64,000 nucleotides of DNA from NCBI GenBank assembly GCA_910584255.1, contig CAJTXV010000001.1:81318-145317 (forward strand), given 5' to 3'. The notes beneath the pieces are model-generated. The model did no database searches. It was not told where the DNA came from and worked only from the letters and a program-made list of their open reading frames with translations. This document shows, in pieces, positions 36,976 through 56,023 of the stretch; positions within the stretch are counted from its first letter, which is position 1, and each line of letters opens with the position of its first letter. Both the position numbers and the translations under genes were made by a program. This stretch comes from an uncultured Bacilli bacterium (GTDB taxonomy: Bacteria; Bacillota_I; Bacilli_A; RF39; UBA660).

Positions 36976-39900
36976 CTAATTAAAATTAATTTGTCCTAAA
37001 GACCTTGTCCATGATTCACCATACCCATTTGTACAACTAACACCAACCCAATACAAATATGGAAAACTATAATTAGTATAATTTGTATGAGCTGCTATAT
37101 AGTTTTTCTGAACTTCTGCTTGATATCTAGTTAAATTATAATCAGTAATAACCAGATAATTTCCTGGAAAATTTGGTGCTTCTATAATATTTCCTGTCCA
37201 ACCTGCACTTTGAAATACGCTTAATAATCCAGAAGCATTTCCATAAGGACCATGTCCAGTGATTAAATTACAATATGCCTCTGTAACATTAGCATTTAAA
37301 GTCACAGCATGTGAAGGCATACGATCTACCCAACCATTCCAACCATGGAAAGTATGGTATCCATCAAGTGCTGATTGTCCATCTAAATTTTCTAAAGCAT
37401 CATTATAACCAACAGACCTTGTAGTCCATAAATTACCATTTATATAATAATTTACATTATAGTAGTTTTTAGACCAAGTAGCAGTATAGTTTCTATTTCC
37501 AATACTCTTATTAATAGTTACTGTTTTACTTGCTGAGGATAGATCAGTTCCTGTCCATCCTTGAAAACTATATCCCTCTTTTGTAGGTATTGGAAGTGTA
37601 AAAGCTGGTGTCTCAATATTATAGCTTGTAAGTGATGAAGACATATTTCCTCCATCAAGGTTATAATTAATTGTATAGTTAATCACTTGCCAATTTGCTT
37701 CATAATTTTTGTTTCCTATGCTTCCTTTTGAAATTACAACATTTTTCTGAGGAATTGTACCATTTGATCCTGTCCAACCTAAAAATTCATATCCTTTTTT
37801 AGTAGGTGTTGGTATTATAATTTGCTCGGATTCAATATTATATTTTGATATCGGAGAATTCAAAGTTCCACCATTTAGATTATATACAATGTCATAATCA
37901 ATTACTTGCCAATCAGCAGTCAATTCATGATTATAGTTCTTTTTCATAACAGTAGAATCAGAAATCTTGTCATTTCCACTATACCAACCTTCAAAAGAAT
38001 ATCCTAATCTTGATGGTTCTGGAATAATTCCATATACACTATCATAAGAAACATTAATATCTGTAGGATTTACAGTTCCCTTATTTGGATTTAATTTTAC
38101 ATTATAAATATTTGCAGTCCAATTTGCTTTATAGGATTTATTTCCAGTTGTTCCTCTAGTGTGAGTTATTGTTTTCTGTGGATTTAATCCATTTGATCCT
38201 GTCCAACCTAAAAATTCATAACCCTCTCTTTTAGGATTTGGTAATGTGATTGATTCTGTTTCAACATTATATCGAATTGTTTTTACATCATCTTTTTCGC
38301 CTTTATTTAAATCATAATTTATTACATAATTTTCAATTTCATATTCGGCTTTGCAAGTTGTATCATCTTTAATAATATTGGATGTACAATTCCACCTTGT
38401 AAATGTATAACCATCAATGAATGGATCTTCAGGATAATTTGGATTACTTCCATAATCAATCTTTTCTTCTTTTAAAATTACACCAAATAAATCAACATAC
38501 TTTATTTTTAATTGAATTATCTCCCATTTTGCATACAAATCAATAACAGCAGTATCTTTAGAAGCTAGATTATATATTTCACTTTCATCAGTATATATAA
38601 CATCACCATCTATTTCAGTTGACCAACCTTTAAAAACATATCCCTCTTTTTCAAAAGAATTTTTTCTTAATTTTGCTTTAGTATTGTATTTTACTTTGGT
38701 ATCTTCCATTATTCCTTTAGCATCTTGAGAATGATAAGAAATATAGTAGGAAATTGGTTTGTAATTTGCTGTTAATTCAACATTACCTGTACTTCCTTTT
38801 GGTATTTCATAATCTTTTACAAAATTATCAGATTCATCAGTTGACCAACCTAAGAAAATATATCCCTCTTTTATTGGATTAGGAACTGTAATAGAATCAC
38901 TTTCAATATTATAAGATAAGGGATTATTTTCTATACTTCCTCCTACTAAATTATAAATAATATCATAGGATACAAACTGCCAGTTTGCAGATAATGTTAT
39001 ATCATTTGCTTCTTTAAAAATTGTATCACTACTTACTTCTTTATTTTCGTTATCTGCCCAATTAACAAATGTATAACCATTTTTCGTTACTTTTGGTAAT
39101 TCTCCAAAATTAGAATTGTATTTTACCATTTTTGGAGAAATGTTTTCTTTTGCACCATTTGTATTGAATATCAAATTATAAATATTAGGTTCATAATTTG
39201 CTATTAATTCAATATTGCCTGTACTTCCTTTTGGTATTTCATAATCTTTAATAGGTTCTTCATCTTTATCAACGGTCCATCCTACAAAATTGTATCCCAA
39301 TTTTTGTGGATTAGCGATTGTTAAAGAATCATGTTCAACAGTATAGTTCTGTGGTGCATCTTCTAATATTCCTCCATTTAATTCGTAAAAAATGTTATAA
39401 GTATTAATAATATAAGTTGCTTTAATAACAATATCTTCTTTTACTATTTTAGATTCTTTATCCCAACCATTAAATTGATAACCATTTCTTTTAGGAATTT
39501 GTGGTTCAACAATTTCTTGACCATAATCATATTTATTTTTAGATATAATAGAATCATCATAATCTAAAAAGGTTATTTCAAAGGTATTAATTTCCCAAAT
39601 TGCATATAAAATAATATTTTCTTTTGCTTTATCTGAAAGATTACTTACATCAACACCATCTTTATAAATTGGTGTATCATTAGAATTTGTTGACCATCCT
39701 ACAAAACTATATCCTTCTCTTTCAAATATTCCATTGGGTAATTTACAACTTTTATTTTCTTCACAAATAATAGAGTCCATCTTACCATTTCCACCATTAG
39801 CATCAAACTCAATAGTATAAGTAAATACTTCGTCATTACTTACTATTGGTTTTGTATTATTAGAAATCGGCATATCCTTATCCTTTTCTACCAATTTAGA

Positions 39901-40329
39901 ATCGTCTTTTGAATTATTATTAGGAATATTATCTGGAGTTTTCACTTCTTCTTGAATTGGTGTTGGAATCGTTGGATTATCTAAAATATCTTTTTTAGGT
40001 CTTAACATACATAGTAAAAACAAAAGTAAAAGTAAAAAAAGGAATAGAAGAAAAAGAAAAGGAATACGTTTCTTCAAAAGAATAAACATGTTATTCCCTA
40101 CATCCACATATCCCTTTTTAAATCCCCACAATTTTTCCTTTACCTCATAATCTTTATCACCAAAATTTAATAAAGCTACATCTTTATTAGAATTTGATTT
40201 CCATTTTTTTAGTCTAGTTTTTCCAACAACAACATTGTCATTTTTGTCTTTAAACTCTTTTTTAGAAATATAAGGAATGTCTTTATAATACTTTGAATTC
40301 TTATGATCAATTGCAATATATTTTTTCAT
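36976..40329 (-). CDS. Giant type-II membrane-anchored surface protein with about 10 Listeria-Bacteroides (Flg_new) repeats and a distinct C-terminal domain
   Basis: About 90-aa N-terminal cytoplasmic segment then TM (FLFLLFLFLLLLLFLLCML); repeats GYSFVGWSTN...ILYAIWE, EGYVFKGWSTEIDGDVIYTDESEIYNLASKDTAVIDLYAKWE, and others. Confidence 0.7.
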   Translation of the reverse strand: MKKYIAIDHKNSKYYKDIPYISKKEFKDKNDNVVVGKTRLKKWKSNSNKDVALLNFGDKDYEVKEKLWGFKKGYVDVGNNMFILLKKRIPFLFLLFLFLLLLLFLLCMLRPKKDILDNPTIPTPIQEEVKTPDNIPNNNSKDDSKLVEKDKDMPISNNTKPIVSNDEVFTYTIEFDANGGNGKMDSIICEENKSCKLPNGIFEREGYSFVGWSTNSNDTPIYKDGVDVSNLSDKAKENIILYAIWEINTFEITFLDYDDSIISKNKYDYGQEIVEPQIPKRNGYQFNGWDKESKIVKEDIVIKATYIINTYNIFYELNGGILEDAPQNYTVEHDSLTIANPQKLGYNFVGWTVDKDEEPIKDYEIPKGSTGNIELIANYEPNIYNLIFNTNGAKENISPKMVKYNSNFGELPKVTKNGYTFVNWADNENKEVSSDTIFKEANDITLSANWQFVSYDIIYNLVGGSIENNPLSYNIESDSITVPNPIKEGYIFLGWSTDESDNFVKDYEIPKGSTGNVELTANYKPISYYISYHSQDAKGIMEDTKVKYNTKAKLRKNSFEKEGYVFKGWSTEIDGDVIYTDESEIYNLASKDTAVIDLYAKWEIIQLKIKYVDLFGVILKEEKIDYGSNPNYPEDPFIDGYTFTRWNCTSNIIKDDTTCKAEYEIENYVINYDLNKGEKDDVKTIRYNVETESITLPNPKREGYEFLGWTGSNGLNPQKTITHTRGTTGNKSYKANWTANIYNVKLNPNKGTVNPTDINVSYDSVYGIIPEPSRLGYSFEGWYSGNDKISDSTVMKKNYNHELTADWQVIDYDIVYNLNGGTLNSPISKYNIESEQIIIPTPTKKGYEFLGWTGSNGTIPQKNVVISKGSIGNKNYEANWQVINYTINYNLDGGNMSSSLTSYNIETPAFTLPIPTKEGYSFQGWTGTDLSSASKTVTINKSIGNRNYTATWSKNYYNVNYYINGNLWTTRSVGYNDALENLDGQSALDGYHTFHGWNGWVDRMPSHAVTLNANVTEAYCNLITGHGPYGNASGLLSVFQSAGWTGNIIEAPNFPGNYLVITDYNLTRYQAEVQKNYIAAHTNYTNYSFPYLYWVGVSCTNGYGESWTRSLGQINFN

Positions 40330-40358
40330 TAATTTGCCCCTTTCAAGTATTTAAAGAC

Positions 40359-43300
40359 TTACTTTCTCTTCTTTTTTTTACATAAGATAATAATAACTGT
40401 CGCTAAACCTGCTAGAGATAACCCACCAAGTGCTAAATATAAAGTCATGCCATTATCATATCCTGTTTGAACACCAGGATTTTCTTGAATAACTGGAAGC
40501 AATGTATTTTGATATTTAATACTATAAAGTAAATCTTCATCAGTCTCTACTTTTTCATCATTAACAAATAACCCATCACTATTCAATTCTATTTTTACAA
40601 TTTCAGATGAAATTCCGTATCCTTCTGGTGCTTCATATTCACTAGCATATAGAACTGAGCCATAATAAACTGGAATTAAGGCAGTTCCATCCTCTATATT
40701 TGCTTTATAAATTCCCACAATTTCGTTACAATCCTTATCTTTACATACTCTAAAAGAAAAATCCTTACTTTTAATATTTTCTAATGTTTTATCATCCACT
40801 TTATTAATTAAAATAAAATTTTTAATTGGTTCATTATAGACATTATAAGTATTTGATATTTTCTCAATATTTTGTCCTTTATATTTTGTATCCACTAATA
40901 ATACTTCCTTATTTTCATAATATCCTTCTAATGGCTCTTCTATAATTTCAAAATATGGTTCATCATCAAATGAAATAGGTAAATCTGCATTAAACACATA
41001 TCCACCATTAGAATCAGTTTTTGCTACTTCAATAATGTTTCCTGCCTCTACTAGCAATTCACCATTATAAGATAAAATATCTTTAGTTGCTTTCAAATTA
41101 AAAATAACACCTTTAAGTGCTATATCACGATCTAAATCTTTTTTTGTTAAATCTACTTCTACTTTTTGTCTTTCATTTGTAATAGAAAGGGTGTCAAATA
41201 CAAGTTCAGTTTCATTATCTTTAAACTCAAGAGAAATATCATATTTTTTCGTATCAACTAACATTCCATTTGGTGCTGAATATTCATACCCAACATAATG
41301 CCCTAGTGGAAGCTTTTTAGACAATGTCTCTTCTTTGTCTGTAGTAGTGACTATATCTGCTATTTCACCTTCTTTATAAATAATACTTCCATCTGCTGGA
41401 TCAATAATATCCTCAGCTGCTTGAATATAAACTGTCATACCTGGCAAATATTTTTCTTCATAAATAAACTGTATATTTCCGTTTTCATCTTTCTCTACAC
41501 CAGTTAATACTTCTCCTTTTTTTGATACTTTAACTTGTCCTTTTACTGCTTGATCATACATAGTTACAGTTAAAATTGGATCTCCATCTTTATCAACTTC
41601 AACAATATTAGAATTTGTGACTTTAAATTCTAATCCCTCTTTATTAATAACATAAAGATCTGGACTTTCAATTTCTTCTAAAAGCCAATTTCCTGCTTTT
41701 ACTTCCAATGGTAATTGAAAATAACCTTTATCAGATGTTTTCCAGGTATCATAAGTTTTATCTGCTACTTTTTGAGTTAAATATTCTTTAGTATCTGCAT
41801 TTTTAATTTTAAAAGATGTATTAGTCATAGTAATTAATTTACCTGTTTCACTATCTTTTTTTTGTAATTTCACATAAGAAGTAAAATTACGATTATTAAT
41901 AATATATTTTATAGTATCTTGATTTTCTTTTGACACTACAAACTCCCAAGAATCCTTTACTTTATCTGTATCTATTTTACCCTTAACCTGTTTTACCATA
42001 AAAGTACCGTATGCCAGCTTTCTGCTTTTCGCCCAGCCTTTGTTCGATGTCACCAATTTATCATATTCTTTTTCAGTAAATTCATCACGATGCTCCCATG
42101 CTTCTTCTATGCTTCCATACTTATCAACATATTTTTTAGCAATTACTAAAAATTCTGCACCTTCTTCTTTTTCTACAATTTCAGAATTTTCACCTGAAGT
42201 TATTACTTTTTCTAATTCAAAATCACCCACAATTACTTCTTCAACTGAAGTTGTTTTTGCAATTACTGTTTTTACATTTTGATCCGAATAAGATAATGTG
42301 AAATTTCTATGCGTTTTATCTATACTATAACCAATTCCAGGAGTAAGTTCAACCCACTCATAAGACCCAAGATAGAGATTATCTACTTGTGCCATTGAGT
42401 TTTCAATACGAACTCTAGTCACCTCATCTCCAGCATTATATATAATACTTCCATCTGCTGGGTCTAAGATGTTTTCTTTTGCCTTCAAGGCATATAATGC
42501 TCCATCAATTTCAGCTTCATTCTGACTATGCTTAACATCTGCATCTTCTTTATAAAGAATGGCTGTACCTTTTACTCTTTCATTCGATAATGTCAAATGA
42601 ATACTTCCACTACCAGTTGCTGAATCACTATCGGTAGTATTATCTGGATTTAACCAATATTTCGTTTTTGTCTTTGTTTCAATTACTGTAAATTGATGAG
42701 TTTTTGATGCCATCTCAGTAGCTTTAATTTGTGCTTCCGAATCAGCAGCTGCTCTTGCCTCTAGTTCGCTATGATAAGCTCCTCTCTCATCAACTTTCGC
42801 TCTACCTTCACTACCTAAATCATCCCAATTTGTTACATAAGTTTTTGGAGATGAAGTTGCTGTAAAAGTAACAACAGATGTAGAAGTAGCATTTCCTTGT
42901 TCATTAGTTACTCCAGATGAAAACTTTACTCCATCACGATAAAAATCCACTTCTACTCCAGAAAGTGGTTTCTTTGATTCAATATCATCTTTATAAAATG
43001 AAATATCTACTACTTCATTGGCTGTTTTAGTAGAATCTAATGTTGCATATATTGGTTGTGCATCAGTTAACCTAAATACTGTAATATAGTCCATAGAATT
43101 AACGTTTGTAGACATACCAAAAAGTGAAATATTAGAAGCTAATATGGCATCTCCTACTCCATAAGTATATCCATTAGCTCCGTACATTGAAATAGTGCTT
43201 CCATAAACACGAATAAATCCAACATGACCTGAACCTGTGTAATTTGCTTTATCTTCAGGTCTTTGAATTACTAGATCTCCATTTTTAAATAATTTGGCAT

Positions 43301-43691
43301 TTGCTTTAACATCTTTTATATAACCAGCCCAAATTAATTTTGCATCCTCTGGGTGATTCATAGCATTACGATACATACCATCTGGTGCATATCTTGCCCC
43401 AGTACCATCTGCTTGTGGTGTATCAATATTATAGGGATGTGTTCCCACAATAGAAGTCCCAATTCCTAATTTGTTTAAAGTACGAGTTACTAATCCAGTA
43501 CAAGTACCTACTTCTCCATAACCCCAATCACTGTATGTCATTGCTGTCTCAATAATTTTATCTCCAGAGACATTTGCTAATGCACTTACTTTTGGTATAA
43601 ATGGCGTGATTGGAAATGACGTCATTAAAATTCCTACTGCTAAAACTACATTTAAAACTTTTTTAAACTTCATACCAATTTTTTTCTTCAC
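40359..43691 (-). CDS. Sortase-anchored giant adhesin: signal peptide, N-terminal CHAP/NlpC-like domain, CnaB/prealbumin-like repeats, C-terminal cell-wall sorting signal
   Basis: Signal peptide VLAVGILMTSF...ALA; GTCTGLVTRTL ... GSGHVGFIRV (Cys/His CHAP-like); C-terminus ...ENPGVQTGYDNG + hydrophobic LYLALGGLSLAGLATVIIIL + CKKKKRK. Confidence 0.7.
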   Translation of the reverse strand: MKKKIGMKFKKVLNVVLAVGILMTSFPITPFIPKVSALANVSGDKIIETAMTYSDWGYGEVGTCTGLVTRTLNKLGIGTSIVGTHPYNIDTPQADGTGARYAPDGMYRNAMNHPEDAKLIWAGYIKDVKANAKLFKNGDLVIQRPEDKANYTGSGHVGFIRVYGSTISMYGANGYTYGVGDAILASNISLFGMSTNVNSMDYITVFRLTDAQPIYATLDSTKTANEVVDISFYKDDIESKKPLSGVEVDFYRDGVKFSSGVTNEQGNATSTSVVTFTATSSPKTYVTNWDDLGSEGRAKVDERGAYHSELEARAAADSEAQIKATEMASKTHQFTVIETKTKTKYWLNPDNTTDSDSATGSGSIHLTLSNERVKGTAILYKEDADVKHSQNEAEIDGALYALKAKENILDPADGSIIYNAGDEVTRVRIENSMAQVDNLYLGSYEWVELTPGIGYSIDKTHRNFTLSYSDQNVKTVIAKTTSVEEVIVGDFELEKVITSGENSEIVEKEEGAEFLVIAKKYVDKYGSIEEAWEHRDEFTEKEYDKLVTSNKGWAKSRKLAYGTFMVKQVKGKIDTDKVKDSWEFVVSKENQDTIKYIINNRNFTSYVKLQKKDSETGKLITMTNTSFKIKNADTKEYLTQKVADKTYDTWKTSDKGYFQLPLEVKAGNWLLEEIESPDLYVINKEGLEFKVTNSNIVEVDKDGDPILTVTMYDQAVKGQVKVSKKGEVLTGVEKDENGNIQFIYEEKYLPGMTVYIQAAEDIIDPADGSIIYKEGEIADIVTTTDKEETLSKKLPLGHYVGYEYSAPNGMLVDTKKYDISLEFKDNETELVFDTLSITNERQKVEVDLTKKDLDRDIALKGVIFNLKATKDILSYNGELLVEAGNIIEVAKTDSNGGYVFNADLPISFDDEPYFEIIEEPLEGYYENKEVLLVDTKYKGQNIEKISNTYNVYNEPIKNFILINKVDDKTLENIKSKDFSFRVCKDKDCNEIVGIYKANIEDGTALIPVYYGSVLYASEYEAPEGYGISSEIVKIELNSDGLFVNDEKVETDEDLLYSIKYQNTLLPVIQENPGVQTGYDNGMTLYLALGGLSLAGLATVIIILCKKKKRK

Positions 43692-43929: not shown

Positions 43930-44820
43930 CTACTTTATTCTAAAGCTCCATCCACCATAAAAATACATAACAGTATAGAATGATTCTTTGATTTCTTTCT
44001 TCAAGCTGTTACCCCAAATTACTTTTGCAGGTATTCCATACAAAGTAAGTTGAATCAAAGTCGCATATATTCTATCTAAATCTGTATCCCAAACTTCAAC
44101 ATACAATTCTTTTTGATAATTTACTCCTTTGTTTTTTAAAAAATGTGCTGCTGCTAAAGCTGTACTTCCTACTCCACAACTAGGATCATACACAGAAATA
44201 TATCCTTGTTCTTTAATGGCTTTTTCATAATCCACAAAAGTTGTTTCTGCAATAATTAAAGACTTTGCCCAATCTTGATAAAATTTTAATGTTTTATCAC
44301 TTGAAATATCTAACTTGCCAATCAATTCTCCTATTACATCAACTACTTCACTTTTTGCTTCTGCTATTAATGTTAAATCAGATAATAACTTAGCTAATTC
44401 ATTAAATTCTTCTTTTGTATATTTATCCTCTATAATTTTAAATTCTTTTTCTCTATTTTCTTTTTTATCACCATTTAATTCCATTGCCTGAATATAAGCT
44501 AATCCACCCATTCTTATAAAATCAATAAACAAATCATATTTATCATGCTTATTACCAGCAAGGGCATTGAAATCTGTTATAAATTCATTATAAATATCAT
44601 AATCTGAACCACTTAACAAAGAATCAACAGTTGTTTTAAGAACTTTTGCTAAATCACATAAATTATAAACTGATGGTATTGCACTTCCATTTTCCCAATT
44701 ACTTAATTGCTTTTTACTAAAACTAAGTGAATCCGATTTATTTTCTTTTACCTTATCTATAATATCATCCTGTGTATAATTCAATTCATTTCTTCTTTTC
44801 TTTATATTATCTCCTAACAT
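43930..44820 (-). CDS. XRE-type HTH domain fused to a truncated N6-adenine methyltransferase-like domain
   Basis: N-terminal QDDIIDKV...LSNWENGSAIPSVYNLCDLAKVL (HTH); C-terminal ISVYDPSCGVGSTALAAAHFL (MTase motif I) and VIWGNSL, but no NPPY/F before the stop. Confidence 0.55.
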   Translation of the reverse strand: MLGDNIKKRRNELNYTQDDIIDKVKENKSDSLSFSKKQLSNWENGSAIPSVYNLCDLAKVLKTTVDSLLSGSDYDIYNEFITDFNALAGNKHDKYDLFIDFIRMGGLAYIQAMELNGDKKENREKEFKIIEDKYTKEEFNELAKLLSDLTLIAEAKSEVVDVIGELIGKLDISSDKTLKFYQDWAKSLIIAETTFVDYEKAIKEQGYISVYDPSCGVGSTALAAAHFLKNKGVNYQKELYVEVWDTDLDRIYATLIQLTLYGIPAKVIWGNSLKKEIKESFYTVMYFYGGWSFRIK

Positions 44821-44949: not shown

Positions 44950-47900
44950 CTATTTTTTTAATTGTAATAAAACTTTAGATTCTAACAACTCTACTTCTTT
45001 TTCATAATCAAAATCATCAGTTTTATCAAATGATAAAGTAGATAAAGTCTCTGATGCTATTTGTTCTTTATAACTATCTAACATAGCTTTGACTTTTTCA
45101 TCATCAGTAACGATATTTAATTTAATTCTATCAACAACATCATAGTCAGCTTCTTTTCTTGCAACTTGACATTGTCTCAATAATTTTCTATACATGAATT
45201 CCTCATATAATTGATCATCAATAGTAATATCAAGTGCTACAAATTTACCTTGTTCTTCAGCAACTTTAACACCATCATTATACTTATATTCGACTTTTAA
45301 TGTTTCAGGAACTATATTGATTCCATCAAGTACCATTTCTTCATTTTTAGAATATTTATTATATAAATCTTTCATATCTTCTTCATTCAAATTTAATAAT
45401 AATTCTTTAACATGATTTACTTTTTCCTTATAAGTCATACCTGCTACTTTAAAATCCAATGTAAGATAAGGGGTACATAATGAATCAGTATTATCAAGAT
45501 ATTCAATTTCCTTAACATTTAATTCATCCAATAAGATTTGTTCATATTCATCTAACGAAATATGTTTGAATCCACATAACGATAATTTTCTTAATGGTTG
45601 AGTTAATTTCAAATTATTTTCATTTTTAATTCTTAAAGCCATTGTTACAATATTTCTAACTTCATCTGTTTCCTCAAGTAACTTTTCATCATATTCTTTA
45701 ACTTCTGGAAAGTTAGATAAATGTACTGAGATGGCTTCTTTTGGTTCAACATGAAGAATTAAATCTTTCCAAATATGATCAGTCATAAATGGTATTATTG
45801 GAGCCATTACTTGAGTCATCTGTTTTAGTGCTTTATATAATGATTGATATGCTGAATATTTTTCATCATTCATTTCAGATTTCCAGAATTTTTTTCTGTT
45901 TATCTTAATATACCAATTTGATACTTCATCAACACATTCTTCAAAAATCTTAACAACATTATTTGGTTCAAAATTATCATAATATTTTTTTGCTTCAGCA
46001 ACAAATTTATTTATTCTTGTATCTAACCATTTATCACTTACACTATGTACTTTATATTCTTTTGTTAAATCTGGTTTATCAATTTCATAATATAAATCAA
46101 AGAATGCTGCAATATTATAAAAATTCATAAGTTTTCTTTTAGCTTCTTCTAACATTTTAAATCCAAATCTAATATCATTAACACGATTTGTTCCTAAATA
46201 ATTATATCTGATAGCATCTGCACCATGTATTTTAACAACATCATCAAACGTTAAATCATTCTTATTAGATTTACTAAATTTAGATCCATCTTCCTTTACA
46301 ACCATACCATAAGTACCACATTTTTCGTAAGGAATTTTATTTTCAAGTACAGTTGACATAAATAACATTGAATAGAACCATAATCTAATTTGTTCAGTAG
46401 CTTCAACTACAAGTTCTGCTGGGAAGTATTCCTTCCAATATTCTTTATCTTCAAAATACTTTAAAGTTGAATAAGGAACAATACCTGCATCTAACCAAAC
46501 ATCTCCAACTTGTTCTACTCTTTCCACTTCTTTTCCACATTCAGGGCATTTAATTTTAACTTCATCGATAAATGGACGATGTAATTCTTGTAGATTATCT
46601 ACTATCTTAGGATCAACAGCTAAATCTCTTAATTCTTCTTTAGAACCAATTACTGTTAAATGACCACACTCACATTTATAGAATGGCAATGGTAATCCAT
46701 AGAATCTTCTTCTAGAAATATTCCATGCTCCCATATTTGTAAGCCAATCTAACATTCTTTTTTCTTGATATTCTGGAGTATATTTAACTTTTTTCGCATT
46801 TTCGATTAATTGTTCTCTTATTGGGTCAACATCTATTGCCCACTCTTTAACAAGTCTAAACATAATATCTTGTTTACATCTCCAGCAATATGGATATGCG
46901 TGTTTATAATCATGCGTAAAGAATAATTTTCCTCTTTTATCTAGTTCTTCAAATACTAAATCTTGAACTTCCCTAGCATTTTTACCAGATAAGAATCCAA
47001 AGTTATCATATACATAACCAGATTCATCAATTGGAATTATTTTATCTAATCCTAAAGATTCTCCTAATTCAAAATCTTCTGCTCCACAACCTGGTGCTAT
47101 ATGAACTATACCTGATCCTTCCGAATTATCTACCATATCCCATAAAACTATGTTATGTTTTACACCATCTTGTGCTGGTATTTCTGGAAAGCAAGTTTCA
47201 AATTCTAATCCTTCTAATTCCTTACCTTTAACGATTTCTATAACTTTTGCTTTTTCTTTAAATTTTCTTTCAAATACATCTTTGCATAACAATAATTTTT
47301 CTCCATCAAAGTCAGCAATTACATAATCAAATTCTGGATTAACAGCTAAAGCAACATTGGCACATAATGTCCAAGGAGTTGTTGTCCATACAAGGGCTTT
47401 ATAATCTTTTCCTACAATTGGTAGTTTAAAGAATACTGCCTTACAAGTAACATCATGATAACTACCTGTCATTTCATGTTCAGATAAAGATGTTCCACAT
47501 CTTATACACCAAGGCATAGGTTTATAAGTCTCTTTTATTAATCCTTTTTCATTACATTTTTTTAAGAAATACCAAATACTTGTAATGTTATTATCTGCCA
47601 AAGTATAGTATGAATTATCCCAATCCATCCATTGACCAAGTCTTTTTGATTGTTCAGTAATAATTCCTGAGAATTTTTTTACACGATCAACACAGGCATT
47701 AGTAAAGTTTTCAAGACCAAAGTTTTCAACATCCTTTTTATTTTTAAATCCTAAATCTTTTTCTACTTCTACTTCTACCCAAAGTCCTTGACCATCAAAG
47801 CCATTTCTATAATGAGTAATATATCCATTCATTGCTTTATATCTAATAAAACAGTCTTTTAAACTTCTACCAAAAGCATGATGGACACCCATTTTATTAT

Positions 47901-48045
47901 TTGCTGTAATAGGACCATCTATGAAACGATACTTCTTACCATTTTTGTTTTTCTCTCTTAGCTTTTCAAAACAATTTTCTTCTTGCCAATATTGAATTAC
48001 TTCTTCTTCATTTTTGACAAAATCATAATTTTTCATATTTGCCAT
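44950..48045 (-). CDS. ileS: Isoleucyl-tRNA synthetase paralog (type-2/eukaryote-like class I aaRS) with a non-canonical HIGH region
   Basis: 1031 aa; GPITANNKMGVHHAFG where P-P-T-A-N-G-x-P-H-x-G-H-A is expected; editing-domain TTTPWTLCANVALAV; Zn motifs WCIRCGTSLSEHE and CPECGKEV; KMSKS as KFSKS; no T-box recognised in the 310-nt leader. Confidence 0.75.
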   Translation of the reverse strand: MANMKNYDFVKNEEEVIQYWQEENCFEKLREKNKNGKKYRFIDGPITANNKMGVHHAFGRSLKDCFIRYKAMNGYITHYRNGFDGQGLWVEVEVEKDLGFKNKKDVENFGLENFTNACVDRVKKFSGIITEQSKRLGQWMDWDNSYYTLADNNITSIWYFLKKCNEKGLIKETYKPMPWCIRCGTSLSEHEMTGSYHDVTCKAVFFKLPIVGKDYKALVWTTTPWTLCANVALAVNPEFDYVIADFDGEKLLLCKDVFERKFKEKAKVIEIVKGKELEGLEFETCFPEIPAQDGVKHNIVLWDMVDNSEGSGIVHIAPGCGAEDFELGESLGLDKIIPIDESGYVYDNFGFLSGKNAREVQDLVFEELDKRGKLFFTHDYKHAYPYCWRCKQDIMFRLVKEWAIDVDPIREQLIENAKKVKYTPEYQEKRMLDWLTNMGAWNISRRRFYGLPLPFYKCECGHLTVIGSKEELRDLAVDPKIVDNLQELHRPFIDEVKIKCPECGKEVERVEQVGDVWLDAGIVPYSTLKYFEDKEYWKEYFPAELVVEATEQIRLWFYSMLFMSTVLENKIPYEKCGTYGMVVKEDGSKFSKSNKNDLTFDDVVKIHGADAIRYNYLGTNRVNDIRFGFKMLEEAKRKLMNFYNIAAFFDLYYEIDKPDLTKEYKVHSVSDKWLDTRINKFVAEAKKYYDNFEPNNVVKIFEECVDEVSNWYIKINRKKFWKSEMNDEKYSAYQSLYKALKQMTQVMAPIIPFMTDHIWKDLILHVEPKEAISVHLSNFPEVKEYDEKLLEETDEVRNIVTMALRIKNENNLKLTQPLRKLSLCGFKHISLDEYEQILLDELNVKEIEYLDNTDSLCTPYLTLDFKVAGMTYKEKVNHVKELLLNLNEEDMKDLYNKYSKNEEMVLDGINIVPETLKVEYKYNDGVKVAEEQGKFVALDITIDDQLYEEFMYRKLLRQCQVARKEADYDVVDRIKLNIVTDDEKVKAMLDSYKEQIASETLSTLSFDKTDDFDYEKEVELLESKVLLQLKK

Positions 48046-48357
48046 GAATAATCATCCTTTCCTTTTTAAGCAATCCTATAATAAATAAAAGACTTCTTCT
48101 ATCATAAATAGAAAAAGTCTTGACTTTCTTTATACCACTATTTACAACAATCTAACAATTGCGTCTTTTTTAACGGAAAGAAACCGTTGATTCTTACTCT
48201 TTTGCAATTTCTGAATCACAACAATAGAGTGATATTCATAATATAACTACTCATATAGGGTTCTCACTATCTCCTACTCACTTTGACTTTTGTCATAATA
48301 CTACTGTCTCTATTATAGTCTTTGCTTGTTTCATGCAGAAATAATATACCACAATTA

Positions 48358-49041
48358 TTAATTAATGTCAATTTCGGAACTATTTTTTTCTAATAATTCT
48401 CTTAATTTTTTTGTATGAAACTGTATTGCATCTTCTTTGTTTGTAAATCGTTCTTGCAATAATATATCATTATCTGCATCTTCGCTATTATCAAATAACA
48501 TTGTTTCATAAGAAAATGTAAATGGAGCTGTTTTTCCTAAATATACTGTAGATAAAAAATATTTCTTTGATGAACTAAAAATATAATTTTGACATATAAA
48601 AGGATTCCTTTTTTGCTCGTAATCATTAGGATATGTTTCCTTTAATGTTTGCTCTTGTGTTATTGAATATAAACATACTGATGAAATTGGAAAAGTTATA
48701 ATATAATTTTTTGATCTTTTAATAAATTGAAACTCATTTATCATTCTAAAGGTATAATCAAAATCATGATACAAAACTATTTTCTTTTTTAAATTAATTT
48801 TATCATTGTCTATTGTTCCTTCTAATCCTAAAGATAAAGTTGAAAGAAAATTTTCTATTTCTCGTTCCATTTCTTCAAAAGTAGAATTAGTTTTTAAGAA
48901 ACCTTCTATTTTTGTATAAAATTCATCTTCATTTAATAAAATATTATTCTCAAAAAAATATGAATATGACATATTAAAATTCCTAATAAAATAAGAATCA
49001 TCTAATTTATTGCTCTGTTCTAGATATTCCAGTACATTCAT
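48358..49041 (-). CDS. Hypothetical protein
   Basis: 227-aa ORF. Confidence 0.4.
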   Translation of the reverse strand: MNVLEYLEQSNKLDDSYFIRNFNMSYSYFFENNILLNEDEFYTKIEGFLKTNSTFEEMEREIENFLSTLSLGLEGTIDNDKINLKKKIVLYHDFDYTFRMINEFQFIKRSKNYIITFPISSVCLYSITQEQTLKETYPNDYEQKRNPFICQNYIFSSSKKYFLSTVYLGKTAPFTFSYETMLFDNSEDADNDILLQERFTNKEDAIQFHTKKLRELLEKNSSEIDIN

Positions 49042-49295
49042 AAGAGTTCCTCCTGCATTGTTCTTTTTATAACATCTTTATTATAGCATAAATTCATTAA
49101 TTCTTTTATTTTTCCTTTTAATAAAGCACAAAAAAAGCAATCCTTTACAAGCGATTGCCTACTGCTAGGTACTACTTTACTTCCTACAGCATAAACACAC
49201 TGCATTACTTCATCAGTTGTACTTCATTACCTCTTCAACTGACAAATTTATTATATCACAATAAGTCGAATTTTGTCAATATATATTTTTACATT

Positions 49296-49400
49296 TACTA
49301 CTTATAAATTTACTATTTTTACCTATCTTAATTAATTGAATTTTTAAATATATAATTTATATATACACATTTTATAAGTTTACTATCTTTAAATGTATAT
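49296..49400 (+). promoter_or_regulatory. AT-rich promoter region with 3-4 direct repeats TTTACTAYYTTTA upstream of the HTH gene at 49453
   Basis: catTTACTACTTATAAATTTACTATTTTTACC ... AGTTTACTATCTTTAAA; candidate operator/iteron sites. Confidence 0.3.
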
Positions 49401-49452
49401 TTATTGAATCTATGGAGATTATATAATTACAACAAAATTGGAGGTGATATAA

Positions 49453-49713
49453 TTGGACTTACTTGAAATTGTTGGTCTAAACGTTAAATATTACAGATAT
49501 TTAAAACATTGGACACAAGAAGATTTATCCGATAATTGTGATTTTAAGATTTCATACATTAGCTTAATTGAAAGATGCGAAGCTAATATGACTCTCAAAA
49601 ACATCGAATATCTTGCTAAAATTTTAGGAGTTTCTCCTGATAAATTATTAGTGGAAGAAACTGCTGCCAAGGCAAAAAAGTTGCCAAATCGTGTTGATTT
49701 ATTTACTAATTAA
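49453..49713 (+). CDS. XRE-family HTH regulator (TTG start)
   Basis: LKHWTQEDLSDNCDFKISYISLIERCEANMTLKNIEYLAKILGVSPDKLL; GGAGGTGA RBS. Confidence 0.6.
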   Translation: MDLLEIVGLNVKYYRYLKHWTQEDLSDNCDFKISYISLIERCEANMTLKNIEYLAKILGVSPDKLLVEETAAKAKKLPNRVDLFTN

Positions 49714-49714
49714 A

Positions 49715-50851
49715 TTATTTAATTAGTTTTTTTATGGTTTGTAATGCCTTTTTCTTATCTAATGGTTTTTCAATATAACCATCAAATCCACAAGAGTTTA
49801 TAAAATAGTCAGCTTGTCCTCTATCACCTGTTACTATAACTACTGGAAGATCAAAGCCATCAATTCTTTTTAAATCTCTTATCAAGTCTGTTCCATTTTT
49901 TCCTGGCATTTGATTATCCGTTATTATTATATCATACTCATCAAAGGTGGTAAGTATTTCTTTCATACATTCATCAGCACTATATACTGCTTCTGAATCT
50001 ATACCAATTTCTTTTAAAACTTCTTGATTCATTTTTGCTGTCGGTTTATTGTCATCTACAACTAGAGCCATTATATTATTCCTTTTTCTTTTTAGATTTT
50101 CTGGCTCTAAAACTATTTTCACGATACTAATACTTATCTTAGATAAATTCACTTCAACTTGTACTTTCTTAGCAGAATGAAGAAAATATTGACGTATAAT
50201 CATAAAATCAGAATCAACTTGACAATCAACATAATCAAATGGATTTCCACTAATATTCAATAATGCACCTACAGGTTCAATATTATTTATATCATTTACT
50301 AAATTAACATTTTCTAAATCAATTTCAATTCTATTTTTTGAAATATTTCTTACAGCTATTGTTATTTCATTTTTTTTATCTATCTGAACTGATTTAGAAA
50401 GTAACATTTTTATTGCTTGTAATAATCTTTGATCATACGCTACTTCAATATCTATGTTTTTGGGAAATTCTAATTCAATTTTTCCATCAATGTTTTTAAT
50501 TATTTGATTTAATTCATCTTTTAAAGTTCCTTTTATAATTTGTTTTTTTGAATCATTATTTAATAGAGCATCAATATTATTAACTTGTTCCTCCAAATCG
50601 CAAATAATTTCTGAATTAAACAATTTTTCTTTTTTCATTTTTATTTTATCTAATTCTTCTATAGATTTTACCATGTTGCTATTAATTTTTGATAAAGCAT
50701 TTATTATAATCGTATGTTCTCTTTTTTCTTGTGTTAAAATTCTGTTTTTCTCTATCTCTTCCTCTGAGATTTTTTTTAACTTTAAGATATTAAGAATTCC
50801 TATTATACTAATTGTTAAAATGATTATTGTAAATATTATAAAACACCACAT
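49715..50851 (-). CDS. Membrane protein with a C-terminal response-regulator receiver (REC) domain
   Basis: N-terminal TM; C-terminal ALVVDDNKPTAKMNQEVLKEIG...IIITDNQMPGKNGTDLIRDLKR...PVVIVTGD. Confidence 0.55.
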   Translation of the reverse strand: MWCFIIFTIIILTISIIGILNILKLKKISEEEIEKNRILTQEKREHTIIINALSKINSNMVKSIEELDKIKMKKEKLFNSEIICDLEEQVNNIDALLNNDSKKQIIKGTLKDELNQIIKNIDGKIELEFPKNIDIEVAYDQRLLQAIKMLLSKSVQIDKKNEITIAVRNISKNRIEIDLENVNLVNDINNIEPVGALLNISGNPFDYVDCQVDSDFMIIRQYFLHSAKKVQVEVNLSKISISIVKIVLEPENLKRKRNNIMALVVDDNKPTAKMNQEVLKEIGIDSEAVYSADECMKEILTTFDEYDIIITDNQMPGKNGTDLIRDLKRIDGFDLPVVIVTGDRGQADYFINSCGFDGYIEKPLDKKKALQTIKKLIK

Positions 50852-50941
50852 TTTTATTCCTCCTTTTTATTTGCTCATATTTTACATTTACTATTTATAT
50901 TATTACTAGAATGGTTAAAAAAAATTGATTACTTTTTCTAT

Positions 50942-52429
50942 TCATGTTAACTGATATTTTTTTACTAATTCTTTTTCTTTTATATACCTATTAATTAGCT
51001 GAAGGACTCTTTCGACATCCTCTGCACAAACACACAACTCTCTAATTATTTTTTTACCATTATCAGTCGCATACCATATCAAATCCTTATTATGCTTTGA
51101 TATTTTTATTTCAAAATTGTTATTTTCAACACATAATTTAAAAGATAAAATATTAATATCTCGTCCTGTTTGATTTAGATTGTGCAAAGCTATATCTTTA
51201 AATATATTCTGATTCTTATCTAATCTTTCCATAATAGCTAAGATTAATTCTTTCTGTTCTTCCGTAATTTCTTGCTTTGTAACTGATATATCTTTTCTTT
51301 TTTGAATAATATCATTTATTAACGATTTCATTTGATTTTGATATTGTCCAACTTCGCTATCTTTAATATGGCTAATATTATATACTGTATATATACTTTG
51401 ATTTTCAAGTTCTGCAAAAAATTTTTTTACACAATCATGTTGATATGATCTTGTTGTTCCTCTAAAATTACCAAATACCGAATTATTATAATTAGAAAAT
51501 TCAACTAAATAATAGTTTTTCATGCGTAGCAATCCATCTTCAAACCCTCTTAAAATAATTCCAAAATTCTTTTCCGATATATGATTTATTTTTTTTTCAA
51601 AATCATCATCATCCAGCATTAAACATTGAATAAAATAATCCTTTAATTGAGTTTTGGGAAATAAATATATCTCTAACATTCTTATTAAAAATAAGTTATC
51701 ACGTTCAAATACTTCATCCAATTTATAAATCAATACGTTTAAATAATTCAAAATTGTTATTAGCCCATTTTCATTTCTTTTTATTCTTTTGATCTTATAA
51801 TCATTTCTAAATTTAAAAAAATATTCTAAATCTAATTCAATGAAAAATTTGGTTAATAAATCCGAATATGAAAGATTATTACTATTTATTAAATTAAGAA
51901 TTATTTTTTCTAATTCTTCAGTATTTTTAAAATCTATTTCTTCACTAGAAGCTGATTTTGAAATTATTAATGAATCTTCATATATTCTTGAATTTAATAG
52001 TTTAAAGTCTATTTTTTTCAGTTCTATATCTAATACTTTGTCCAATCCATTTTTTTCAATATCTATTTCATTTTTTTCTACACAATAAATAATCTTTTTT
52101 AATATTTCATCATTTTCTATTAATACTACATCAATCACACTTGATAAATTTAATAATTTAACGTGTGGCTTTCCTTTTAGCCAATGACATACATTTTCTA
52201 TAACATAAATTATTTTTTCAATCTTTATATTTATATCATTTTTTAAATATTCTTGGCATAGTTTACTACATAACACTTTTCTTATTGTATATGGATACCA
52301 TATATTCATTTGATATATTGTTTCCTCTACTATTTTTACTACATTGTTTACTTCTAAATCTTTTGCTTTAGTCATAGCATTTATTTTCCTCCATTTCTTT
52401 ACTACAACAACTACAAATAAATAATTCAC
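50942..52429 (-). CDS. Hypothetical protein
   Basis: 495-aa ORF. Confidence 0.4.
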   Translation of the reverse strand: MNYLFVVVVVKKWRKINAMTKAKDLEVNNVVKIVEETIYQMNIWYPYTIRKVLCSKLCQEYLKNDINIKIEKIIYVIENVCHWLKGKPHVKLLNLSSVIDVVLIENDEILKKIIYCVEKNEIDIEKNGLDKVLDIELKKIDFKLLNSRIYEDSLIISKSASSEEIDFKNTEELEKIILNLINSNNLSYSDLLTKFFIELDLEYFFKFRNDYKIKRIKRNENGLITILNYLNVLIYKLDEVFERDNLFLIRMLEIYLFPKTQLKDYFIQCLMLDDDDFEKKINHISEKNFGIILRGFEDGLLRMKNYYLVEFSNYNNSVFGNFRGTTRSYQHDCVKKFFAELENQSIYTVYNISHIKDSEVGQYQNQMKSLINDIIQKRKDISVTKQEITEEQKELILAIMERLDKNQNIFKDIALHNLNQTGRDINILSFKLCVENNNFEIKISKHNKDLIWYATDNGKKIIRELCVCAEDVERVLQLINRYIKEKELVKKYQLT

Positions 52430-52555
52430 TCTCCTTTCTTTTGGCAGTAAAAATCACTCTATTATTATAAATTTTATGCAGCAAACCTTTCCACCTGTTA
52501 TATGGACATAAATTGTCAAAAATCTTAACATTATAATAAGTGTGGAGGTGGGATT

Positions 52556-52807
52556 ATTAAGTATAAAACCAGAAAATTATTAGCAAACAACCTTATCTAT
52601 TTTAGACATAAATATAAATGGTCTCAAGAAACATTTGCTGAAAAATTGAAATCAAGCCCAGCTTACATTTCCCAATTAGAAAATGGTAAAAGAAATGTTA
52701 CAGCTGACTTTTTAGATAAAATTGCAGAAACTCTCAAAGTAGAACATTATGAATTGCTTGTTAAACGTGATGTTATAAATAATAAAAGAGTAGATCAAAA
52801 GAAATAA
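52556..52807 (+). CDS. XRE-family HTH regulator with an apparent non-canonical ATT start (absent from the ORF track)
   Basis: Frame open 52538-52807, encoding (I)IKYKTRKLLANNLIYFRHKYKWSQETFAEKLKSSPAYISQLENGKRNVTADFLDKIAETLKVEHYELL; SD GGAGGTGGG at 52544-52552; no in-frame ATG/GTG before the HTH. Confidence 0.45.
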   Translation: MKYKTRKLLANNLIYFRHKYKWSQETFAEKLKSSPAYISQLENGKRNVTADFLDKIAETLKVEHYELLVKRDVINNKRVDQKK

Positions 52808-52971
52808 TATAAATATTTCTTTTTTTTATATTCTTACTACTCTATCTATTTTAACATAATTTTTCATAATTTCATATATACTTTTGAATATTAATTCGAT
52901 TATTTAAGTATCTCTTAATTATTCGTGATAAATGTTAGAATTAATATGTAAGAAAGAAATAGGAGCGTGTT

Positions 52972-53226
52972 ATGAAAAATCAAAATTACATAATTTCTTA
53001 CGCAGACTATGGATCGATTCATTACGATATTAGTTCTATCATGAAGAAACGTAATCTTACACAAACCCAAATTGTTAAGAGAACTGGTCTTCATAATCAA
53101 ATCGTTGAAAGATACATAAATGGCTCTATAACTAGATATGATAAAGAAGTATTAGCCAAATTGTGTTATGTACTTAATTGTGAGTTGAATGAAATCATGT
53201 ACTACGTAAGACCAAAAGACAAATAA
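52972..53226 (+). CDS. XRE-family HTH regulator
   Basis: MKKRNLTQTQIVKRTGLHNQIVERYINGSITRYDKEVLAKLCYVLNCELNEI. Confidence 0.55.
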   Translation: MKNQNYIISYADYGSIHYDISSIMKKRNLTQTQIVKRTGLHNQIVERYINGSITRYDKEVLAKLCYVLNCELNEIMYYVRPKDK

Positions 53227-53293
53227 CTGCAATTATTGTCTTTTTTTTATTTTATAATTAATATTCAAAAAGGTCAATCTTTGAATATACACC

Positions 53294-54328
53294 CTAGTAA
53301 TTCATTCTAAAAGATACTACTGCATACCAGTAGTTATTATATTCATAAACACTCGCTGCAATGGCAACACTTCCCTCTCTCAGCATCGTTGCATTATGAG
53401 GTGGACTGTTTTTCCATGCTGTAATAAAATCGCTTCCTATACTTCCGTTTCCTATAATCTCTCCAAATCCATATCCAACACCATCATGTGAATAGTAACT
53501 GATTAATTCTTTTGATCTCCTATCTGCTTCGGATTGTGCTTCTGATGTAACTGGAAGTTCTGATAGTCCATTTGCCTTTCTGTAATCGTTAATTTGTCTT
53601 ACATAAGAATCAGCTAACTCTTTTTTATAACCAGAAAAAGATTGATTCGGTACACTAGGTGTAGGATTTTTAGGAATAACATTTGGTGATTGTTTATTGT
53701 TGTTATTACCGTTATTATTGTTTGATAAATTCTCTTCTACTTTTGGAACGATTTTTTGATTTACTTTCAAAATAAATTCTTTTTCAGCTTTATTATTACT
53801 TTCATCTTCAGCAATGATTTTTAAATTATACTCACCAACCTTAGATAAATCATAATCGCCATCTATTGAAAGTTTTATTTTAGAATAATCTTTTGCTTCA
53901 AAGAAAGTAGTTAGATCTATATTCTCAACATTTTCTTCTATTTCTATTACTTCTTGTGTAACTATAAATTCAGGTGCAATTGTATCCAATACTTTTACTA
54001 AAAAATGTTTTTTTTCTTTCCTATAAGTGATATTTAATTTGTATTCTCCAACTGGTAAAAAAGTCAGATCTCCTTTCATAAATTTCTTTTCTTTAACCAT
54101 TAAAGAATCCGAAAGCAAAGAATAATCTTTTATATTTTTAGTAGTATCAGCATCTTTAAGATAATCAGATACATCAGCACTAACCTCTTCCCCTAATTCA
54201 TAAACAAACTCAGTTTGCTTCAATTCTATTTTATCCTTATTTTTATTTGAACTTAATAATACTACTAAAAATACAATTATTGTTAATATTAGTATTATTG
54301 GTATTATTATCTTTACTATTTTTTTCAT
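53294..54328 (-). CDS. Membrane-anchored CAP/SCP (YkwD-like) domain protein with Ig-like (DUF5011-type) domains
   Basis: N-terminal TM; Ig-like block similar to 20139..20555; C-terminal YRKANGLSELPV...SHDGVGYGFGEIIG...AWKNSPPHNATML...YWYAVVSF. Confidence 0.6.
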   Translation of the reverse strand: MKKIVKIIIPIILILTIIVFLVVLLSSNKNKDKIELKQTEFVYELGEEVSADVSDYLKDADTTKNIKDYSLLSDSLMVKEKKFMKGDLTFLPVGEYKLNITYRKEKKHFLVKVLDTIAPEFIVTQEVIEIEENVENIDLTTFFEAKDYSKIKLSIDGDYDLSKVGEYNLKIIAEDESNNKAEKEFILKVNQKIVPKVEENLSNNNNGNNNNKQSPNVIPKNPTPSVPNQSFSGYKKELADSYVRQINDYRKANGLSELPVTSEAQSEADRRSKELISYYSHDGVGYGFGEIIGNGSIGSDFITAWKNSPPHNATMLREGSVAIAASVYEYNNYWYAVVSFRMNY

Positions 54329-54385
54329 TTTACTCCTCCAACTTCTATGTTAATGTGGCATCTAACGCCACATTCGATAATTCTA

Positions 54386-54847
54386 TTAATCTAAGTAGAA
54401 ATGATAACTTTTTTCATATATGAATTCTACTTGGTTTGAATAAACAGCTAAATAGAAATAAGCTTTCGCTTTGTGTCTTCTCACTTGTCTTTCTGAAAGT
54501 TCAAGTTTTTCTGCAATTTCTCGATCTTTATATCCATAAAAACATTTTAGTCTTAAAAACTCTGCTATTGTTTTATCAAAATCCTGTAATTTTAAAATTG
54601 TTTTAATATAAATTGCTATTTGATCATCATTCCAGGATAAATGTTTTAGCAGCTTATCTGATGCTGGAGAACCTGTTGATTTTCCAGAAAACACAACAAT
54701 ACTTGCTGAATTAAATGCACCTGTGCCTAATTGTCTTAAACGTTTTTCCACTAACGGTTGATACAATTCACATATTTCCTTTCCATTATTTGCTGTTTTT
54801 TCCATGTCAATTTTTGATATTACTTCTTTATCAAAAATATTAATCAT
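54386..54847 (-). CDS. Sigma-70 region-4-like / ArpU-family transcriptional regulator
   Basis: C-terminal YKDREIAEKLELSERQVRRHKAKAYFYL, a region-4 HTH pattern. Confidence 0.45.
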   Translation of the reverse strand: MINIFDKEVISKIDMEKTANNGKEICELYQPLVEKRLRQLGTGAFNSASIVVFSGKSTGSPASDKLLKHLSWNDDQIAIYIKTILKLQDFDKTIAEFLRLKCFYGYKDREIAEKLELSERQVRRHKAKAYFYLAVYSNQVEFIYEKSYHFYLD

Positions 54848-55101
54848 TATTCAGAATCCGAATCATTTTCTACATTAGATTCTTCATCTGTTATTTTACG
54901 AACATTAACTGCTTTTTTCTTTTCGGCATCATAATCAAAAATAACTTTATCGTCTTGATCTAAACTTTTAAACCCTTTCATTTGAATATCAGAAAAGTGA
55001 ATATAAATATCATTTTCTATTTCCTCACTTGTTATAAATCCAAATCCCTTTTCACTACTAAACCATTTTACACTACCTTTTAAATTCATTTTTTCTTGCA
55101 T
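54847..55101 (-). CDS. Cold-shock domain protein (CspA family)
   Basis: GSVKWFSSEKGFGFITSEE... Confidence 0.8.
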   Translation of the reverse strand: MQEKMNLKGSVKWFSSEKGFGFITSEEIENDIYIHFSDIQMKGFKSLDQDDKVIFDYDAEKKKAVNVRKITDEESNVENDSDSE

Positions 55102-55601: not shown

Positions 55602-55672
55602 TCTTTTGTTATTACCTTCATCACACCAATACTGCTCAGCATTACTACCAAATAAATCCTCATAAAACTGCT

Positions 55673-56023
55673 TTACCTTTTTAATAAACTTTCCTCCTTT
55701 TTGATCTCCAATGATATGGATAAAGCATCATCAATTTTATTCATAGCTTCTGAATCCAATGTTTTAATGTAATAAACTATTTGTTCTTTTGAAATAGTCA
55801 AAATACTTTCACATAATGCCATTACATTTGGTTCTAAAACCACGTGAGTTGGCATATATATTTTTTTGAGTTTAGTTGTAAGAGGTACAACGATTATGTT
55901 TGGCGAAAAAGTATTTCCTACATTGTTTTGAACAACTATACAAGGTCTTACACCATTTTGCACATGATCATATTTACTCTCTAAATTTACAACATAAATG
56001 TCTCCTTTTCTAATATTTCTCAT
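55673..56023 (-). CDS. MazF/PemK-family endoribonuclease toxin
   Basis: RKGDIYVVNLESKYDHVQNGVRPCIVVQNN...IIVVPLTTK matches the PemK/MazF core. Confidence 0.7.
   Translation of the reverse strand: MRNIRKGDIYVVNLESKYDHVQNGVRPCIVVQNNVGNTFSPNIIVVPLTTKLKKIYMPTHVVLEPNVMALCESILTISKEQIVYYIKTLDSEAMNKIDDALSISLEIKKEESLLKR

Follow-up and report, generated by a model that had tools for sequence, protein, structure and literature searches.

The window analysed here is a 64,000-nt stretch of DNA from an uncultured Bacilli bacterium of the RF39 lineage (GTDB UBA660; assembly GCA_910584255.1, contig CAJTXV010000001.1, positions 81,318 to 145,317). It carries an ileS gene, coding for isoleucyl-tRNA synthetase (IleRS), together with conjugation genes and the 5' part of a large serine recombinase gene (Table 1). 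Judged by gene content and junction sequences, this gene, called hereafter cargo ileS, sits inside an integrative conjugative element and not beside it, and the element interrupts a second, native ileS of the host. All sequences compared were metagenome-assembled genomes (MAGs) or metagenome assemblies.

Table 1. Positions of the features found in the window, numbered from its first nucleotide
Feature	Position	Strand	Description
Large serine recombinase, 591 aa, 5' part	1..1102	-	codons 1-367; runs on past window position 1
Sortase	1390..2124	-	PF04203
MobA/VirD2-type relaxase	5970..7655	-	PF03432, E=1.8e-28
Second, smaller resolvase-domain protein, 469 aa	10396..11805	-	PF00239
CHAP-domain cell-wall hydrolase	20570..21712	-	PF05257
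VirB4-like conjugation ATPase	22463..24886	-	DUF87 and TraG P-loop domains
Type IV coupling protein	26709..28652	-	PF02534, E=2.8e-45; TraG-D_C
DnaG-type primase fusion, 1004 aa	29853..32867	-	Zn_ribbon_DnaG, DNAG_N, Toprim
DNA methylase	34342..35373	-	PF01555
Two surface proteins, ~1110 aa each	36976..43691	-	ten Listeria-Bacteroides repeats; SpaA prealbumin folds
XRE-type helix-turn-helix (HTH) regulator	43930..44820	-	directly downstream of ileS; domain match
Element-borne (cargo) ileS	44950..48045	-	complete type-2 IleRS, 1031 aa, 'PITANN..G[IVM]HH' clade
KFSKS (KMSKS-type loop)	46267..46281	-	residues 589-593
GSGIVHIAPGCG, after editing-domain TTTPWTLCANVALAV	47083-47118	-	GSGIVH = residues 310-315
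Editing-domain TTTPWTLCANVALAV	47341..47385	-	residues 221-235, including TTTPWTL 221-227
GVHH signature (HIGH-type, non-canonical)	47878..47889	-	residues 53-56
T-box riboswitch leader	48075..48330	-	RF00230; fold and covariation; direct reading
Sigma-70-type promoter	48343..48371	-	TTGACA-17-TATATT, extended TG; 11/12 consensus matches
Further inserted DNA upstream of ileS	48358..64000	-	gene content by domain matches

The product of the cargo ileS passed the TIGR00392 ileS equivalog model (714.2 bits, cutoff 621.4). Pfam recognised the tRNA-synt_1, Anticodon_1 and DUF5915 domains, the last (PF19302, 98 bits) being the C-terminal domain of type-2 enzymes. All class I signatures and CP1 editing motifs were present, as were zinc knuckles in the form of three CxxC pairs, so that the IleRS hallmarks listed in the initial annotation, which had been made from the letters alone (editing motif, zinc knuckles, KFSKS and signature region), were all recovered. 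The closest solved structures were those of the Priestia megaterium IleRS2 series, with 8C8W in first place (605 bits); TtIleRS scored 547 bits, PmIleRS1 320 bits and SaIleRS1 299 bits, and identity to solved enzymes was about 35%. By these scores it is a type-2 (eukaryote-like) IleRS, nearer to IleRS2 than to IleRS1 structures.

The signature region reads PITANNKMGVHHA (residues 45-57), with GVHH at the place of HIGH. A swap of G/AXHH for HXGH has been described in IleRS2 by Brkic et al. (Nat Commun 2023, PMC10485003), who report it for 86 out of 163 IleRS2 from bacteria. It is tolerated in IleRS2 only and increases the inhibition constant (Ki) of mupirocin up to 1000-fold at little catalytic cost, bringing it into the millimolar range (PMC10485003). 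The GVHH of the window enzyme aligned without gaps to the engineered GVHH of the PmIleRS2 mutant structure 8C8W, and by this alignment it has the Gly (or Ala) at position 1 and the His at position 3 that characterise G/AXHH enzymes. G[IVM]HH, set in a PITANN.MG.HH context, was seen in 88 of its 120 top homologues. Nine others of these 120 (among P0018-P0025, P0030 and P0039; 61-64% identical) keep PITANN but read HVGH, the canonical form; these look like natural reversions, as reported for Deinococcus-Thermus. With the previously described G/AXHH IleRS2 (Deinococcus radiodurans, Streptomyces griseus; 8C8W), the window enzyme shares the type-2 architecture, the DUF5915 C-terminus and the swapped signature positions 1 and 3; it differs from the solved ones in being only ~35% identical, in its subclade (PITANN, from gut Bacillota) and in its location on a conjugative element. 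GVHH is thus typical of the clade, already published and no novelty in itself. The initial annotation had taken it for a special feature of a paralog, which does not fit these counts, and had considered a non-catalytic role, against which stand the catalytic and editing motifs, all kept in the only intact copy seen at the locus.

The gene is preceded by a leader of 312 nt (48046-48357), close to the 310 nt first reported, in which no T-box had been recognised. The literal T-box consensus GGGTGGNACCGCG is absent from it, and an Rfam scan of the whole window at gathering thresholds gave no match. This default scan came out empty because the score of the leader, 60.6 bits, lies under the RF00230 gathering score of 93 bits. 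When the scan was made by E-value, RF00230 was matched at 48156-48325 on the reverse strand (60.6 bits, E=1e-12), and this was the only T-box of the window. The 3' side of Stem I reads GAAU-AUC-A, where AUC (48233-48231) is the Ile specifier and is followed by A (48230). The T-box sequence is AT-degenerate (AAAUAGUGGUAUA) and has a UGGU bulge (48137-48134), whose last U would pair with the A73 discriminator base of tRNA-Ile. A terminator of 15 bp followed by a U-run lies at 48121-48089, with a predicted folding energy of -15.8 kcal/mol versus -6.1 kcal/mol for the competing bulged antiterminator.

Leaders of relatives, read by eye, had the same layout and an invariant AUC-A. In an alignment of 11 related leaders, 98.5% of the cells were paired, as compared to 43-53% in slid controls, and compensatory changes were found for 25 of 56 pairs. 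Shuffling 500 times never matched the observed values on four of the five measures, and 14 of the 500 shuffles did so on the remaining one, further pair types. By its features, the leader of the cargo ileS is a T-box riboswitch, with a predicted specificity for isoleucine and support from covariation. As for its relatives among the AT-rich leaders of loci L014-L026, only one of the ten loci scanned passed the Rfam 15 T-box cutoff of 93 bits (L023, 93.8 bits), although T-box features were plain in these leaders.

An exact look-up of the sortase led to a contig (L089) which matches the window at 100% identity across 12,124 nt and extends the view past window position 1; a contig from a third MAG (L102) was 100% identical to L089 and brought no independent variant. 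Past that position, the end of the recombinase gene overlaps a 974-aa open reading frame (ORF) for an IleRS devoid of its N-terminus, and PASTA, rpsO and pnp genes follow. The element joins codon 49 of this second ileS ~618 nt beyond window position 1, forming attR, and both this junction and the cargo ileS are found on one 145-kb contig. The second IleRS is 33% identical to that of the window (PATANGMPGIHH). Read in frame upstream of the junction (marked by a slash here and below), attR gives ...QTIGN/GMPGIHHMLAKLLKD. Full-length orthologues of the second ileS product are 1029-1031 aa long, up to 94% identical, and all start with ...FVFYDGPATANGMPG[IV]HH; the stretch PATANGMPG[IV]HH was kept in all 120 orthologues examined.

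The closest orthologue (94%) provides the empty site, in which sepF, divIVA, three more genes, a T-box, ileS, PASTA, rpsO and pnp follow one another, and whose homology with attR starts at codons 45-48. By its canonical position, between divIVA and PASTA-rpsO-pnp, the second ileS is the native housekeeping gene. The division-cluster neighbours sepF and divIVA belong to this locus, not to the cargo gene, for which the initial annotation had rightly stated that it has neither these nor lspA beside it.

The other junction, attL, was found by a search with the first 49 native residues. It contains a 57-aa ORF in which PMALKRYII is appended to native residues 1-48. The attL contigs hold upstream genes of the host, the native T-box, which is canonical (AAGGUGGUACCACG) and has an AUC specifier, and the 48 codons; past the junction they continue into unrelated DNA encoding proteins of 260, 53 and 119 aa. 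The three sites read ...AACAGCGAAT/GGAATGCC... for attB, ...AACAGCCAAT/CCTATGGC... for attL and ...ATAGGGAAT/GGAATGCC... for attR. They have GAAT in common, and the deduced attP, which contains ...CAATAGGGAATCCTATGGC..., displays the dyad ATAGG-GAAT-CCTAT; attB contains ...AACAGCGAATGGAATGCC... The insertion parts codon 48 from codon 49, at a point 12 nt ahead of the native G-I-H-H codons. The SRR27445797 run assembly has this element too, differing by 1 mismatch in 12.7 kb and inserted at the same nucleotide of an ileS allele only 75% identical, and the two alleles carrying the element diverge right after GGGAATGG. The finding of the same junction in a 75% identical allele indicates site-specific integration, in two different hosts. 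It is also the sole, indirect, sign that the element may excise and transfer by conjugation.

Neither a 5' fragment of the native ileS nor a second T-box was detected in the window. The 35-nt attB stretch, searched with up to 9 mismatches, had no match in the window, cargo ileS included, and the DNA of the cargo ileS at the homologous position bears no resemblance to attB. Because the native 5' half is absent from the window and the attL contigs do not overlap with it, the window lies wholly inside the insertion, whose length is then at least 66.3 kb.

Chimeric contigs might create a false junction between ileS and an element, all the more as the data are metagenomic throughout and contigs break repeatedly near window position 64000 (in three assemblies, at positions 63896-64069). 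We consider such an artefact most improbable, given that three NCBI MAGs and a single run assembly contain attR, that attL was recovered from two MAGs and likewise from a single run assembly, and that the MAG GCA_949105885.1 has a contig of each kind. Moreover, the junctions are precise, reciprocal and consistent with the empty site.

The relaxase, the coupling protein, the VirB4-type ATPase and the integrase lie all in one inserted segment, as expected of an integrative conjugative element. The domains of the recombinase (Resolvase, Recombinase and Zn_ribbon_recom, from precomputed Pfam matches) are those of a large serine recombinase. A T-box leader and a clade-typical GxHH would be normal for an ordinary housekeeping gene merely adjoining an integrated element, and its counterparts in the relatives L004 and L007 (83% identity) lie between the housekeeping genes rnr-smpB and metS. 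This is nonetheless very unlikely to hold for the window, as the ileS of the divIVA...rpsO-pnp locus is split, with its halves beyond both window ends, and no neighbour in the window is common to the locus of any relative. The initial description of a second IleRS on mobile DNA is supported, since the native ileS halves flank the whole window. Its statement that the gene abuts a mobile element was right in that a conjugative element adjoins it; the gene itself lies within the inserted DNA. The refuting condition it had set has a split outcome: the HIGH variant is typical of the clade and no other intact ileS was found, and still the gene is accessory in origin.

The two junctions and the empty site show that an element of at least 66 kb has split the host ileS, and we think it likely that its cargo ileS compensates for the gene disrupted. 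The recombinase would integrate the element between codons 48 and 49 of the T-box-controlled housekeeping ileS, cutting the host promoter, the T-box and the first 48 codons off from the ~980 remaining codons. The cargo ileS, which has a promoter and an Ile-specific T-box to itself, would supply IleRS activity for as long as the element is integrated, and insertion into an essential gene would thereby be tolerated. Were the element lost imprecisely, the cell would die; a precise excision would rebuild ...ATANGMPGIHH... in frame. The only intact ileS copy at the locus seen is the cargo gene, and to take it as the source of IleRS is the simplest reading, because ileS is essential and the disrupted copy is the one at the canonical housekeeping locus. 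Bacteria use IleRS2 as a housekeeping enzyme, and few organisms have two IleRS (bioRxiv 10.64898/2026.02.03.703510). We infer an active cargo enzyme, which would be the sole functional IleRS, an inactive split native gene and the restoration of that gene upon excision.

Several points weigh against this proposal. A third ileS, for example of the IleRS1 type, may exist elsewhere in the genome. The attL contigs, which cover the left 1.7 kb of the element, are joined to the window end by no contig seen; part or all of the 16 kb ahead of ileS may therefore be a separate, nested insertion. A single element lineage was found, and metagenome assemblies are the sole data source. Lastly, attR contains an in-frame ORF, in which 21-41 element-encoded residues (...KIMYLYQTIGN) are fused to native codon 49 onward, with AGGAAA as candidate ribosome-binding site. 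This hybrid ORF may be functional, as in the case of SXT and prfC, or it may only be the attP arm.

If the hybrid is functional, the element would itself rebuild the native gene, whose start and N-terminus would newly come from attR, and leave the cargo ileS redundant or of use only under particular conditions. Hochhut and Waldor are said to have found in 1999 that SXT restores prfC in this way, through a new 5' end. The in-frame extension has a hydrophobic MYLY strand and G-N-G ahead of native codon 49, and the candidate ribosome-binding site also speaks for translation of the hybrid. Such a rebuilding seems quite unlikely to us. The conserved DGP(P/A)TAN segment is missing from the extension, which shares its DNA with the recombinase coding region in a different frame; the hybrid ORF has no T-box, and the presence of a 3.4-kb T-box-ileS cassette would be left unexplained. 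The overlap is visible at L089:12640-12800 (~520-680 nt past window position 1), where the 3' end of the recombinase gene runs over the MELTRANPLSLKIMYLYQTIGN-GMPGIHH... extension in the other frame.

The SXT/R391 elements, which target the 5' end of prfC (PMC5122569), are alike in that a conjugative element enters the 5' coding region of a translation gene whose function must be preserved (PMC5122569). They differ in that SXT uses a tyrosine integrase, whereas here a serine recombinase is found along with a whole xenologous gene and its own riboswitch. The recombinase is 40-43% identical to annotated site-specific recombinases, among them those of streptococcal '_rum' elements and Erysipelothrix phi1605, which are Firmicutes elements inserting inside coding genes. 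In viral contigs, relatives of the recombinase were at most 44% identical, and none adjoined ileS. Insertion at conserved sites inside coding sequences is common for large serine recombinases, according to the passages of the catalogue of Durrant et al. (2022, PMC10083194) drawn upon here; these name as targets Mg chelatase/ATP-dependent protease, prolyl isomerase and competence genes, and no aminoacyl-tRNA synthetase (PMC10083194). Our literature search yielded no report of an element integrating into ileS or any other aminoacyl-tRNA synthetase gene, which is no proof of novelty. Nor did it yield an element carrying a complete substitute for its own target; the coverage was limited and this, again, does not prove novelty. 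Two IleRS genes per genome are also found in P. megaterium (Bacillaceae ileS1 and ileS2), where both genes are intact and of different types, whereas here both are of type 2 and one is disrupted by the carrier of the other.

The cargo ileS could also be regarded as a resistance gene, which would guard the host against a natural mupirocin-like IleRS inhibitor in the way of mupA, its insertion into the native ileS being incidental. The millimolar mupirocin Ki of G/AXHH IleRS2 would suit such a role (PMC10485003), and IleRS genes in the plasmid collection are mostly mupA. The initial annotation had likewise invoked the mupA/mupB paradigm; the likeness to MupA and MupB of staphylococcal plasmids is that of a second type-2 IleRS gene on conjugative DNA. 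However, the window enzyme scored 555.4 and 576.8 bits with the MupA/MupB models NF000257/NF000258, more than 1300 bits below their cutoffs of 1900, and is 31.8% identical to plasmid MupA. With mupA, the host gains resistance and its ileS stays whole; in the present case the host gene is split, and it has GIHH itself, just as 120 of 120 of its orthologues have GxHH. Since both ileS copies are GxHH, resistance is not an evident gain: the determinant was there already. The insertion is, furthermore, site-specific, at one nucleotide in two host alleles. Resistance is an unlikely explanation in our view. No IleRS of the plasmid collection was more than 34% identical to that of the window.

The nearest relatives of the cargo ileS (80-95% identical) were in MAGs of uncultured gut Bacilli. 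In one of them (L005), ileS is located between pheST and rlmN, and the genes on its flanks code for a Bro-N protein and a coupling-protein-like product. In L009-L013 its neighbours vary by genome, and include AbiTii, Abi_2, CHAT, YhcG nuclease and Rha/ORF6N genes; in L011, tyrS lies two genes downstream of ileS. The ileS subclade of L005 and L009-L013, with 80-95% mutual identity, is thus found in non-syntenic settings rich in defence and mobile genes, and the T-box-ileS cassette may travel more widely. A comparison of synteny across 85 loci of relatives revealed no shared neighbour, apart from weak sortase, coupling-protein, MazF and GNAT matches.

Among the other genes of the element, the surface proteins and the sortase are probably mating adhesins, and an HD protein is also encoded downstream of ileS. 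In the 469-aa protein, the second recombinase of the element, the resolvase catalytic domain is C-terminal (residues 328-435) instead of N-terminal. The inserted DNA upstream of ileS encodes a 227-aa ORF, response-regulator, CAP-domain, sigma-like, MazF toxin, radical-SAM, GNAT, TetR and AraC/GyrI proteins, and ends in an HTH and hydrolase module. The MazF/PemK toxin gene (55673-56023, reverse strand, E=8.7e-23) has ORFs of 62 and 86 aa just upstream on the identical contig L001, with which it probably forms a toxin-antitoxin pair within the inserted DNA.

The left end of the element was searched for with the HTH protein (63175-63966) in metagenomes, which gave four contigs only, sharing just the HTH and hydrolase module; the exact look-up ended in the contigs that break at 63896-64069. 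In these four contigs (L095-L098), the pair formed by the HTH (263 aa) and alpha/beta hydrolase genes (window 62525-64000) is ~87% identical and has unrelated flanks, which suggests a separately mobile or repeated module. On the attL contigs (L100:1820-2300, L099:3520-4000), the native promoter and T-box precede the 48 ileS codons, nine element codons and the left end of the element, and the gene for the 260-aa protein starts ~270 nt further along. It may be speculated that isoleucine starvation could drive transcription from the native T-box into the element.

Taken one by one, the features of the enzyme are ordinary, for the GXHH variant of IleRS2 is known from the literature and ileS genes normally have a T-box ahead of them; the unusual part is the arrangement. 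Mobile elements mostly spare essential genes, in that they go for gene ends or restore the piece that is lost. This one cuts an essential synthetase gene near the catalytic signature and brings along a whole foreign copy, complete with a riboswitch that senses the amino acid. We see an about even chance that this element takes the DNA upstream of the signature codons of an essential ileS as its att site and pays for it with a distant, T-box-regulated ileS, in a takeover of the housekeeping function. If the substitute works, this would be a natural swap of an essential gene by a conjugative element. It would bear on the horizontal replacement of synthetases, on the stable maintenance of elements and on the use of a recombinase with a highly conserved coding target. 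For annotation, two warnings follow: a gene called 'ileS' in such genomes may be cargo, and the default Rfam threshold for T-boxes misses AT-rich leaders. If the takeover is true, the element would be indispensable while integrated, an addiction by replacement of an essential gene. It would also provide an observable route for the displacement of aminoacyl-tRNA synthetases by foreign homologues, so far inferred from phylogenies, and the scattered, island-like settings of the same ileS clade in gut Bacilli could then be later stages of such a replacement.

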